NCBI GenBank assembly: GCA_963796455.1
Contig: CAWCLO010000006.1
Span: forward strand, 229,765-293,764
Source: Candidatus Sulfomarinibacteraceae bacterium
Lineage (GTDB): Bacteria; Acidobacteriota; Thermoanaerobaculia; Thermoanaerobaculales; Sulfomarinibacteraceae
Length of the DNA stretch: 64,000 bases
Direction of reading: 5' to 3'
Position numbers and translations under genes: made by a program
Notes under the pieces: generated by a model
Database searches by the model: none
What the model was told of the DNA's origin: nothing
Seen by the model: the letters and a program-made list of their open reading frames with translations, nothing else
Shown here: piece after piece, positions 33,413 to 61,391 of the stretch
How the letters are laid out: each line of letters starts with the position of its first letter
Numbering within the stretch: position 1 is the stretch's first letter

Positions 33413-33482
33413 TGTGTGGCAACACTGACGACAACCTCACGTTGAGGCAACGCAAGGCGTGCCTCCGATGAACTATCGGAGG
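33413..33482 (+). repeat. Family-2 intergenic module (copy i), starting 1 nt after the GST stop
   Basis: GTGTGGCAACACTGACGACAACCTCACGTTGAGGCAACGCAAGGCGTG, then the perfect hairpin CCTCCGAT-GAACT-ATCGGAGG (33462..33482). Confidence 0.7.
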
Positions 33483-33501
33483 TGTGGGTCCCCCCTGCGC
33501 G

Positions 33502-34740
33502 TCACCTACCTGGAGGTGCAAACCGCCACACGTCGTTGTCGACGTTGAGGTAGTTGAAAGGGTCGAAAAAATTGAAGGTCTCGCGGTCGCCGCCAAAGGT
33601 CAGAATCGACGGTCGCCAGCCTCGCCCCGCACCCCACACGACGAGGGCATCGAAGTCGTACTTGATGTCTTCGGGTCCGTCGGCGTTCCAGGGCGAATCG
33701 CTGACCTGTTCCCAGTGCCTGCCATTCCTGCTGACCCAGACGTCCATCGGATTGGATGGCTTGAAAGGATCGGTCGGATCCGAGCTCAGACCAAAACCGC
33801 CAAACAGTACGATCTGGTTCAGCACCACCACCGCCTGGTGGCCCGGCCGGGCGGGCCACGGCGCGGCATCCGTCACCTGCTGCCAATGAGCACCGTCCCG
33901 CGAACGCCAGACGTCGTTGAAGTACGGCGGGCAACGATCACCGGATTCGCAGGTGAAACCGTCCTCGCCTCCGATCATGTAGAGATAACCGTTCTTCGAA
34001 ACTGCAATCCCCCCGGCACGCGGCGCCCATGGGGCTTGCTTGGTGACCTTGAACCAGCGGGCACCATCGTATGACTTCCAGACATCGTTGAAGTACTCAC
34101 GCGCAGGCTGTCCATCGACGATGGATGAGTCGTCGTTGAAGGACCCGCCCATCACGTATATCGCGCCGCGATGGACGACCGCCGAGAGGCCGGCCCGCCC
34201 CGCCCAGGGAGCGTTGCCGGTCATCTTGCGCCAATGGACGCCGTCACGGCTCCGCCACACATCGTTGAAAAACTCTGACTTCGGCACCTGTGCAGGGCAA
34301 TCCGGCACAAACGGAGGACACTCGTTATCGACGATGTTGAAATTCTGGCCGCCGAGGACATACATGTGACGCCCCTTCGTAACGGCTTGAAAATAGGCGC
34401 GCGCGGGCCAGTGGCTCTCATCGTCGGTGAACAGGATCGGGTCCCAGCTTTCGCCGAAATCGTCGCTCGCCCACACGTCACCCCAAATGATGCTCGCACC
34501 AGGGACAGGCACCTCGGCCGGGTCGAGCGGAGTGCGACCACCCATCACGTAGAGCCGCTTGCCCAGCTTCACCGCCTGAAGTCCGGCGCGGGGAGCCCAT
34601 TGGGCGGCGGGATTCTGAATGTCCCACTCCCACGATTCAATGTTGGAGATCCCCCAACCTTTTTCCTCCTGGGCTACTGCCGTCGAAGTTGTAACGAGAA
34701 TCAGAACAGCACCGAGAGTCAACAGAACTCGAAAACGCAT
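33502..34740 (-). CDS. Secreted Kelch-repeat beta-propeller protein
   Basis: Starts MRFRVLLTLGAVLILVTTSTAVA (internal ATG of ORF 33502..34863). It has repeated W.PRAG...V....LYV.GG and NDVW.S.DG..W units. Confidence 0.8.
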   Translation of the reverse strand: MRFRVLLTLGAVLILVTTSTAVAQEEKGWGISNIESWEWDIQNPAAQWAPRAGLQAVKLGKRLYVMGGRTPLDPAEVPVPGASIIWGDVWASDDFGESWDPILFTDDESHWPARAYFQAVTKGRHMYVLGGQNFNIVDNECPPFVPDCPAQVPKSEFFNDVWRSRDGVHWRKMTGNAPWAGRAGLSAVVHRGAIYVMGGSFNDDSSIVDGQPAREYFNDVWKSYDGARWFKVTKQAPWAPRAGGIAVSKNGYLYMIGGEDGFTCESGDRCPPYFNDVWRSRDGAHWQQVTDAAPWPARPGHQAVVVLNQIVLFGGFGLSSDPTDPFKPSNPMDVWVSRNGRHWEQVSDSPWNADGPEDIKYDFDALVVWGAGRGWRPSILTFGGDRETFNFFDPFNYLNVDNDVWRFAPPGR

Positions 34741-34814
34741 GGATATCCCCCACTTTTGTTTGTGTCGTGGGGCTAATCGTTCAATCTCGGCGAAAATTCC
34801 AGGAAAATGCCGCC

Positions 34815-34865
34815 GATCACAACTCACAATGAGGCACAACGAAATTACGAAACCACGGGCCATCC
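34815..34865 (+). repeat. Family-2 intergenic module (copy ii)
   Basis: GATCACAACTCACAATGAGGCACAACGAAATTACGAAACCACGGGCCATCC, between the divergent Kelch and DUF1330 genes. Confidence 0.6.
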
Positions 34866-34915
34866 AACGAATAAAGCGGCCTTACCATGTGTTGGATCAG
34901 CAAAAGGAGAAAACC

Positions 34916-60900: not shown

Positions 60901-61284
60901 CACGGCCACATGGCCTGCCTGCTGTCCGAGACCTCGGCCTCGGACGGCGACATCTTCCCGCACTACTTCCGGGAGTCGGGCCTCGGCCCCCTCATCGGCA
61001 AACGTTCATGGGGCGGAGTCGTCGGCAGCAGCTACACCCAGCTGATCGACGGCGGCAGCGTCTTCGTGCCGCGTTCCGCAACCAACGATGCCGAAGGCAA
61101 CTACATCATCGAGGGCTACGGCGTCGAACCCGACATCGAAGTCGAGAACGATCCCAAATCAGTCATCGAAGGCCGCGACCAGCAGCTCGAACGTGCAGTC
61201 GCCGAAATCCTCAAAGCCATCGAAACCGACCCGAAGGTCTACCCGACCCGTCCTCCAGATCCAGTGAAGACACCTGGGAACTGA
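57988..61284 (+). CDS. Tricorn-like protease homologue (beta-propellers + PDZ + S41 peptidase)
   Basis: AAGGAGG RBS and a signal peptide. [34 protein letters not shown] is followed by repeated WSPDG propeller blades and a Lys/Asp/Glu-rich linker. The S41-like C-terminus contains [22 protein letters not shown] and SASDGDIF. Confidence 0.9.
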   Translation: [1098 protein letters not shown]

Positions 61285-61307
61285 GGACCTTCTTCATTCA
61301 ACCAAAC

Positions 61308-61335
61308 GCCGGCGGGACAACCCGCCGGCTTTTTT
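61308..61335 (+). terminator. Rho-independent terminator of the tricorn-like protease gene
   Basis: GCCGGCGGG-ACAA-CCCGCCGGC followed by TTTTTT, 24 nt after the stop. Confidence 0.9.
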
Positions 61336-61342
61336 GATTCCA

Positions 61343-61391
61343 GGTGGCCGGCACAAACCTCTCACGCGCCTTTCATCTGGGTGGCACCCAT
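61343..61391 (+). repeat. Family-2 intergenic module (copy xi)
   Basis: GGTGGCCGGCACAAACCTCTCACGCGCCTTTCATCTGGGTGGCACCCAT, with the exact box at 61383..61391, immediately after the terminator T-run. Confidence 0.65.

Follow-up and report, generated by a model that had tools for sequence, protein, structure and literature searches.

The intergenic spacers of an uncultured acidobacterial chromosome were found to carry a family of short, oriented repeats. In a 64,000-nt stretch of DNA from a Candidatus (Ca.) Sulfomarinibacteraceae bacterium (contig CAWCLO010000006.1, positions 229,765 to 293,764; hereafter the window), the nine-nucleotide box GGCACCCAT recurs between genes and forms the sharp 3' end of a longer module of 37-47 nt. 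We observed a family of copies that is restricted to intergenic DNA, runs in a direction independent of the genes and has a locally uniform polarity. The unit is non-palindromic, it is the sequence and not the fold that is conserved, and it ends in an invariant, sharp 3' terminus, GTGGCACCCAT. The modules are most likely a repeat family rather than a gene switch. We favour, with moderate confidence, the reading that they are clade-specific, short, non-coding, non-autonomous mosaic repeats, similar to REP/BIME/REPIN (REP, repetitive extragenic palindrome) and MITE (miniature inverted-repeat transposable element) families, that reside in uncultured Thermoanaerobaculia (Ca. Sulfomarinibacteraceae-like Acidobacteriota) and are probably spread by a strand-specific enzyme in trans. 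The one-way orientation is the unusual part of the family.

Eleven copies of GGCACCCAT were present in the window, ten on the + strand and one on the - strand (45091-45099), compared with an expectation of 0.80 ± 0.92 for both strands in 100 dinucleotide-preserving shuffles, where the maximum was 3. Both the excess over chance and the single inverted copy reported in the initial annotation were thus confirmed. All nine + strand coordinates given there were correct, and a tenth + copy (16803-16811) had been overlooked. This copy lies within the - strand MacB/FtsX-type gene 15219..17654 and is probably a chance occurrence, and the earlier statement that every copy is intergenic applies to the other nine. 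With ∼86% of the window coding on a generous gene list and ∼14% non-coding, the finding of nine of ten + copies in non-coding DNA departs strongly from chance (p ∼2e-7). The longest open reading frame (ORF) from 54067 covers the boxes at 54154 and 54244, which we nevertheless count as intergenic because the actual start of this beta-lactamase-like gene, ATG 54301, has an AAGGAG ribosome-binding site before it and a signal peptide after it. Among the boxes described earlier as one-mismatch variants, those at 40374, 52501, 54109 and 54224 are as stated, and the sequence at 11646 reads GGCACCCCAT, a one-base insertion. A literature search for the 11-mer terminus returned primer sequences only.

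The box had been proposed to be the 3' end of a longer module, and this was borne out. An nhmmer profile built from the window copies identified seven full modules and one partial module, all eight on the + strand (30255, 32662, 33422, 34808, 36152, 40333, 45096 and 54023). Two of these (30255 and 32662) had not been listed before; the family described in the initial annotation is real, with the exception that its copy at 11644 was not significant (E = 2.4). The window variant is a mosaic, TGATCACAACCTCACA-ATGAGGCAATGCGAAGT-GTGGCACCCAT, and its first segment is the reverse complement of the segment found directly 5' of the box elsewhere (window 45101 on the - strand, L201:7161 and L213:16095, where L numbers denote related loci). 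Modules were absent from all ∼10 spacers of the first 29 kb and present in 13 of 17 spacers at 29-62 kb (Fisher p = 1.5e-4). In all 13 module-bearing spacers they lie on the + strand, whatever the strand of the flanking genes (p = 2.4e-4), in agreement with the constant orientation noted previously. Pfam scans showed that the genes of the window are those of an ordinary bacterial chromosome. The copies and related features are as follows.

11644..11690, +: possible decayed copy, GGCACCCCAT ... CACTGACGACAAGCTCA, not significant (nhmmer E = 2.4)
16803..16811, +: isolated GGCACCCAT 9-mer inside a coding region, with no module context
29095..29122, +: degenerate 3' part of a module, GGAAGTGTGCCACCCAT, first copy of the array region (one-mismatch scan, sequence)
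30255..30301, +: full module with no terminal box (nhmmer E = 2e-9; repeat search); its TGA is the stop codon of the DUF4388 gene 29204..30262
32662..32708, +: full module without a canonical box (nhmmer E = 4e-10; repeat search)
33422..33468, +: full module immediately 3' of the stop of the GST gene (33412) (nhmmer E = 6e-10)
34808..34849, +: module copy, 5' two thirds (nhmmer E = 4e-6)
36152..36197, +: full module (nhmmer E = 1e-11)
36204..36287, +: 84-nt hairpin element, GGGTGCCACATTCA...TGAATGTGGCACCC-AT, whose last part is the box at 36279 (14-bp stem in the DNA fold, z = -4.05)
40331..40382, +: best full module, GGGTGGCAC...GTGGCGCCCAT, 12 nt past the stop of 39876..40319 (nhmmer E = 7e-12)
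45083..45125, +: inverted double box ATGGGTGCATGGGTGCCAC joined to a + oriented 5' segment of the module, TGATCACAACCTCACA (box search, nhmmer); 91% identical to L201:7136-7179
49753..49810, +: repeat CAATGGTG CAATGGTG followed by two boxes, 49774 and 49802 (box search, sequence)
52485..52527, +: AATGCGGTATGT, then boxes GGCACCAAT and GGCACCCAT, then a partial tail, ATACACCCAT
54023..54071, +: full module with an ATGCACA/TGTGCAT hairpin in place of the box (nhmmer E = 5e-10; fold)
54109..54252, +: box cluster upstream of the beta-lactamase-like gene (start 54301), made up of the 54109 variant, 54154, the 54224 variant with GATTGCGAAGG, and 54244
56145..56208, +: variant box GTGTCACCCAT, unit GAATGAGTGATTGCGAAGGGTGGCACCCAT and partial tail GATACCCAT, 9 nt past the stop at 56130
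57784..57815, +: 3' part of a unit, GATTGAATTGCGATGGCTGGCACCCAT, upstream of the tricorn protease gene
61343..61391, +: degenerate module and box, right after the intrinsic terminator of the tricorn gene

We then looked at the distribution of the family by scanning species-representative genomes with GCGAAGNGTGGCNCCCAT as the query, taking loci of up to 8 kb. Hits were mainly chance singletons. All but three of the multi-box loci came from metagenome-assembled genomes (MAGs) labelled Sulfomarinibacter, Sulfomarinibacteraceae, Thermoanaerobaculia/-ales or Acidobacteriota/Acidobacteria, and contigs labelled Sulfomarinibacter, Sulfomarinibacteraceae or Thermoanaerobaculia carried 3-10 boxes per 8 kb. 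The numbers of + and - boxes per locus were 10/0 in L097, 0/10 in L084, 0/9 in L032, 2/6 in L027, 0/5 in L080 and 4/0 in L003. The three exceptions were L049 (Methylomirabilota), with two boxes 26 nt apart, L065 (Chitinophagaceae), with two boxes 6.4 kb apart, and L097, a 9-kb contig (JASJHC010000340.1) labelled Acidimicrobiia. The last is probably mis-binned, since it has 10 boxes and shares a 1049-bp, 98% identical segment with the Ca. Sulfomarinibacteraceae contig L027. The same module therefore occurs in Ca. Sulfomarinibacteraceae and Thermoanaerobaculia MAGs.

The consensus of the module in these relatives is CAACAATGAGTCAATGCGAAGKGTGGCACCCAT, and the unit can be written as CAACAATGAGTCAATGCGAAG(G/T)GTGGCACCCAT(G/C). 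A 37-nt consensus is common to different MAGs while the surrounding spacers cannot be aligned, and conservation ends at CCCAT on the 3' side. The 25 nt 5' of the box are conserved and non-palindromic. Units occur as singletons, as head-to-tail arrays, and as inverted pairs with long hairpins. Head-to-tail spacing peaks at 39-40 nt, with most adjacent pairs 8-41 nt apart and two wider (56 and 70 nt), and up to 6 boxes stand in tandem within 150 nt. Repeats of the bare terminus are found as well, 8-18 nt apart (GTGGCACCCATGTGGCACCCAT), and many boxes are trailed by truncated tails such as GCACCCAT or GATACCCAT. Inverted pairs arise where a B-type end (GTGGCACCCTAG or GTGGCACCTWT) on the opposite strand adjoins A-type units; these pairs make hairpins of 80-100 nt and were seen in L097, L084, L032, L003, L055, L201, L099 and L009, whereas the window copies are nearly all single and co-oriented. 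Long hairpin elements share the termini GGGTGCCAC...GTGGCACCC and differ in their interiors, as in the window at 36204-36287 (z = -4.05) and at L097:6403-6482 (z = -7.0); no target-site duplication was found in the flanks of either.

Gene relations were counted with a simple GC3-based gene caller in the window and 22 related loci, where 56 of 61 box clusters were intergenic. The downstream gene was co-oriented with the box in 27 cases and anti-oriented in 24, and the corresponding numbers for the upstream gene were 24 and 26, indicating that orientation is not set by transcription. Local polarity was nonetheless strong, with 45 of 51 clusters on the majority strand of their contig (permutation p = 6.5e-5). 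Box strand did not correlate with GC skew or with coding-strand excess in the 8-kb loci, which are too short for a replication test. The initial annotation had taken the constant orientation to argue against an ordinary promoter, terminator or REP element. The first two parts of this argument agree with the gene counts and with the lack of a sigma54 -12 element; the third does not hold, as relatives also carry inverted copies and REPIN/BIME/MITE-like hairpins.

How might such polar repeats spread? We propose that the units would be copied or moved by a trans-acting enzyme that recognises the terminus on one DNA strand, the likeliest candidate being a single-strand-specific HUH/Y1 enzyme of the IS200/IS605-RAYT kind. 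The lagging-strand template is the substrate of such enzymes, and insertion there would leave the target unduplicated and the 3' end sharp, produce tandem ‘stutter’ copies and hold one orientation for tens of kb regardless of the strand of the genes. On this reading, the copies accumulate in a variable part of the chromosome with accessory genes, at the borders of gene-sized units that are shuffled between relatives. There is a precedent in Acidobacteria, in which class 3 Y1-HUH genes are accompanied by atypical REP-like structures numbering hundreds of copies (PMC6006769), and insertion of IS200/IS605 elements is strand-specific, into the lagging-strand template (PMC6006769 and its references).

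A number of observations count against spread by an enzyme of this kind. Pfam scans detected no transposase, Y1/HUH or recombinase domain among 60 ORFs of the window, and no transposase or recombinase in 10 ORFs next to the densest clusters of L084, L097 and L032. In a regular-expression search of every locus for HUH...Y, Y1-like ORFs were confined to L136 and L137, both of which are free of boxes. The unit alone lacks the hairpin that Y1 enzymes normally require. Some relatives are mixed in orientation, with L201 switching from - to + near 1.9 kb and L027 carrying 2 + and 3 - clusters, and in the window the GC skew (negative on +) and the gene-strand bias (73% of coding on +) disagree on the direction of replication. 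Copies are confined to 29-62 kb, which would not obviously be expected of a genome-wide REP, and the first-half spacers that lack them host another repeat family. Finally, no clean pair of filled and empty sites was recovered, and mobility is therefore something that we can only infer. The window and ∼200 kb of related loci yielded no cognate Y1 (RAYT) gene.

The Y1/HUH ORFs of L136 (∼2900-4500, two in tandem) and L137 (∼3000) are IS200/RAYT-like (NHYH...YIHRN). They adjoin a homologue of the beta-lactamase-like gene, GGGGTCA(A/G)GTCT-type repeats of their own and a 186-nt tandem duplication, and possibly constitute the REPtron of another repeat family.

An alternative that we regard as unlikely is that the boxes bind a host protein that has a polar function at the level of the chromosome, in replication, segregation or the organisation of the nucleoid; selection, and not the mode of insertion, would then keep one orientation on each arm. 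Conservation of sequence and not structure, clustering of sites at short spacings and a local polarity independent of genes are all consistent with this, and the 11-15 nt near-palindromic core, (AT)GGGTG-S-CACCC(AT), would suit a dimeric protein. A box has also been kept upstream of tricorn and ctaA in pairs of relatives while the nearby sequence diverged. However, whereas KOPS and Chi are spread through coding DNA, the boxes avoid genes and are lacking from half of the window, and the 25 nt 5' of the box are conserved too and non-palindromic. The inverted pairs, long hairpins and decayed copies resemble the turnover of elements, and the repeats are patchy among close lineages.

Comparison of genes shared with relatives showed how the repeats behave relative to their surroundings. 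Homologues of the tricorn protease came from sources labelled Acidobacteriota, Thermoanaerobaculales and Ca. Sulfomarinibacteraceae, and the closest relative of the window gene, in L201 (P0001), is 91% identical at the amino acid level and 89% at the nucleotide level. The window and L201 align only over the gene, the 65 nt before its start codon and the sequence through the end of its terminator, and all neighbours of the gene differ. Both loci have a box upstream of tricorn (CTGGCACCCAT in the window vs GTGACACCCAT in L201) and a module copy after its terminator, and these two downstream copies cannot be aligned with each other. The ctaA-like gene is 98% identical between L097 and L027 over 1049 bp with unrelated flanks, and the homology ends precisely with the stop codon on one side, and on the other within a box-like GCACCC; in L097 the boundary at the stop codon is 17 nt from a box. 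A glyoxalase gene is 89% identical between L201 and L066, and only L201 has a module right after the stop codon. Among more distant tricorn homologues (74-81%), the surrounding loci L202-L205, L211 and L212 are free of boxes, while L213 (74%) contains several and L201 also carries boxes. The tricorn, ctaA, glyoxalase and distant-homologue comparisons show that the repeats turn over much faster than genes and are patchy among lineages, and that they sit at the edges of gene-sized units shuffled between relatives. The DUF4388 gene could not serve as a filled or empty site, its nearest homologues being only 65% identical with C-termini that vary anyway, and Logan contigs reached through a window paralogue were short and either identical to the window or without boxes.

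Two other features were noted at tricorn loci. In L201 a gene for an IS110-family (DEDD) transposase (13886-15151) lies in the spacer after the tricorn terminator and module; IS110 elements are known to target repeat sequences. In L211 (10001-15261) two ORFs (874 + 239 aa) stand in place of an intact tricorn gene, and next comes a reverse-transcriptase (RVT_1) gene, which is missing from the syntenic L202 and L204, where OmpW directly follows tricorn.

The position of repeats at the edges of genes raises the question of whether the boxes are oriented recombination sites that bound gene cassettes, resembling attC in function and not in sequence. A site-specific, possibly single-strand recombinase would cut out and insert gene-sized units at the GTGGCACCC|AT junction, giving arrays with one equally oriented site in nearly every spacer. 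We consider this quite unlikely. Some features do fit: 13 of the 17 spacers at 29-62 kb carry a module in one orientation with 1-4 genes per interval, while the adjacent 29 kb have none, and the content of this 32-kb region is accessory-like, with toxin-antitoxin genes that include MazF (40454..40789) and an RHH-antitoxin / PIN-like-toxin pair with a truncated duplicate, the pair being recognised by eye from the translation. L201 is similar in having two PemK cassettes. Shared genes (89-98% nt identity) keep their 5' region and terminator while neighbours differ, with junctions at or near boxes, and in the hairpin variants, as in attC, complementary termini are conserved around an interior that varies. 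On the other hand, homology boundaries fall near boxes and not exactly at them, as in the 17-nt offset in L097. No R''/R' pair (RYYYAAC...GTTRRRY) overlaps any of 14 module regions on either strand, and integron attC sites were rejected as an identity; most units are unable to fold. Neither the window nor the surroundings of the arrays examined contained a tyrosine or serine recombinase, with no Phage_integrase-type match among the 60 window ORFs and no intI gene. The genes, which occupy both strands and can be as long as 1100 aa, each come with a promoter and terminator of their own, and tandem arrays of up to 6 boxes in 150 nt would be unexpected for junctions. The fuller proposal, that GTGGCACCCAT modules are the sites of a non-integron gene-cassette system with a putative recombinase, in which self-sufficient gene units form arrays stabilised by toxin-antitoxin genes and differing completely in content between close relatives, is in our view improbable.

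Analysis of folding bears on the favoured reading of a mosaic repeat as well as on a role in gene expression. The hairpins described in the initial annotation exist, and the one at 36190 is part of the 84-nt hairpin 36204-36287, with a perfect stem of 14 bp (z = -4.05). The mini-hairpin CCTCA-CAA-TGAGG occurs in window copies as reported; relatives have not conserved it, and covariation was absent. RNAalifold on 31 units from many loci gave three weak pairs (-2.3 kcal/mol) with no covariation or compensatory change, and the only near-palindrome in the unit is the 11-nt GGGTG-G-CACCC. Rfam 15 covariance models did not match anything at 30-62 kb even at E ≤ 1, and the sole window match above an Rfam gathering score was a different repeat, Acido-Lenti-1, at 14824-14870; a structured RNA was therefore rejected. 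The module had no match in a plasmid collection, and three viral matches were chance occurrences in a coding-like context with no module, so that a phage or plasmid origin was also discarded. The earlier remark that the module is not a recognisable named element is in keeping with these searches.

It is very improbable that the modules are cis-regulatory or RNA elements (promoter, operator, terminator, 3'UTR stabiliser, small RNA, or the start ATGGGTGCC of a small ORF on the opposite strand), for although boxes lie 50-210 nt upstream of co-oriented genes (36279, 49802, 54244, 57807 and 61383; L201 9901 and 15412) and the reverse complement begins with ATG and encodes MGAT... peptides, orientation is not associated with flanking genes, copies lie between convergent genes (40374, 52510 and 56191), neither a sigma54 -12 nor another conserved downstream element was seen, and Rfam match, consensus fold and covariation are all wanting. 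Specific candidates were rejected individually. None of 11 boxes checked against a sigma54 promoter (TGGCAC-N5-TTGCW) has TTGC at -12. Small ORFs starting with ATGGGTGCC would give peptides of differing length and sequence, and the distances between units (8-41 nt) do not follow multiples of three. A conserved regulatory site of the beta-lactamase-like gene was dismissed because no boxes were found near the gene in 80 metagenome loci with homologues of 42-77% amino acid identity. The only exact sigma54-type promoter match in the window, TGGCACCAAAATTGCT (1279-1294, +), is inside a - strand kinase ORF, and a sigma54 activator gene is present at 24228..25640.

Other repeats were found in the window. 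A second interspersed family, GTCATCCTGAGCGGAGCC...GCAGTCGAAGGATCT, includes the copy at 14824-14870 (+) that was identified as Acido-Lenti-1 RNA (RF01687, 47.5 bits, passing the gathering score). Similar copies lie at 2007-2039, 14743-14769, 15016-15069/15125-15178 (an inverted pair), 27727-27759, 27967-28020 and ∼57836-57905. They occur in both orientations, and compared with L201, the copy at ∼57.84 kb has been inserted between the box and the 5' region of tricorn. A 75-nt tandem duplication at 45.0-45.2 kb (45030-45170) has two direct copies of ∼55 nt (CCTCACAATTGCCAT..CAGGCCCAA(A)ACGGTCTT..GAATTT), ∼74 nt from start to start. Lying on either side of the inverted double box, they may represent a further small repeat unit.

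A direct duplication, 39189-39678 / 41031-41811 (88-92% identity), contains an RHH-antitoxin / PIN-toxin pair that is vapBC-like by eye. The copy at 39189-39678 lacks ∼283 nt in the middle and is probably a fused pseudogene. The duplicated pair flanks a 147-aa gene, a module and MazF (40454..40789), giving three toxin-antitoxin loci in 2.7 kb. As an insertion test this duplication was set aside, being a gene-pair duplication with an internal deletion that is unrelated to the modules. The ORF 36489..39116 encodes an 875-aa protein with 162-nt (54-aa) repeats at 36800-38880 and a W-D-G...W motif, for which Pfam returned a Rax2-type beta-propeller only. The last 52 nt of the DUF4215 and FG-GAP protein genes (44971-45022, +, and 52542-52593, -) are 73% complementary; these unrelated, secreted-looking proteins have a similar C-terminal tail, ...DDFETGSPSEWTSSVP, that may be a sorting signal.

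If the modules are indeed polar REP-like repeats, they would be a natural marker of how single-strand DNA enzymes mould the genomes of uncultured sediment Thermoanaerobaculia, a large and ecologically important group with a part in sulfur and carbon cycling, and would extend the little-studied field of ‘atypical REP’ sequences in Acidobacteria. If they are recombination sites, they would represent a second, independent route to gene-cassette shuffling besides integrons. The one-way orientation could mark the replichore or strand in fragmented MAGs, and the repeats flag mis-binned contigs, such as L097, as well as variable genome regions.

Finally, we compared the module with known systems. It shares with integron attC sites and CALINs, as found in sedentary chromosomal integrons, a frequency of about one site per gene-sized interval, a uniform orientation, an array of accessory and toxin-antitoxin genes whose content differs between close relatives, and hairpin variants with conserved complementary ends and variable interiors. 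It differs in having no RYYYAAC/GTTRRRY sites, no intI and tandem clusters of sites, in that most copies cannot fold, and in that the genes between modules are large, self-sufficient and on both strands. An integron integrase beside the array is not required for CALINs. Like KOPS (FtsK) and Chi (RecBCD/AddAB), the module has a local orientation that is strongly biased whatever the direction of transcription. KOPS and Chi are 5-8-mers that occur throughout coding DNA with a fairly even density, whereas the modules are 11-47 nt long and clustered, avoid genes and do not occur in half of the window. A few module copies are like DDE-derived MITEs, being 80-100 nt elements with the terminal inverted repeats GGGTGCCAC...GTGGCACCC. 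Unlike MITEs, they show no target-site duplication, most copies are single arms, no parent IS was seen and the ends are asymmetric, variable or CTAG on the left and CCCAT on the right.

The ends of IS200/IS605 elements and of their miniature derivatives (PATEs), which move as single strands into the lagging-strand template, are similar to the module in being polar and strand-specific with an orientation independent of genes, and in having a sharp end, no need of terminal inverted repeats and no target duplication. IS200/IS605 ends, however, use subterminal hairpins with guide and cleavage tetranucleotides, and only some module copies have hairpins; moreover, neither a TnpA/TnpB gene nor a left-end/right-end pair around a gene was found with the module. 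The module was also compared with REP/BIME/REPIN sequences with RAYT (TnpA-REP, Y1 HUH), including the ‘atypical REP-like structures’ of class 3 TnpA-Y1 in Acidobacteria and Planctomycetes (Quentin et al. 2018, PMC6006769). Like these, the module is short, dense, intergenic (9 of 10 + boxes in the window) and clade-specific, it is a mosaic with singletons, clusters and, in relatives but hardly in the window, hairpin-forming inverted doublets, it shows no target-site duplication, and its host phylum carries REP-like families in hundreds of copies. Its conserved end contains an invariant GTGG that lies within the terminus or stem, where the GT[AG]G of REPs marks the 5' foot of the hairpin. Unlike REPs, the module is not a palindrome of 20-40 nt with a conserved fold, its copies are overwhelmingly in one orientation and not in alternating doublets, its 9-11 nt terminus forms head-to-tail arrays, and no associated RAYT gene was seen in the window and related loci scanned. 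Because the defining palindrome is lacking and neither the GT[AG]G foot nor the RAYT association gives a clear match in the loci scanned, we assign the modules to no defined family and describe them as a new, polar variant of REP/BIME/MITE-like repeats.

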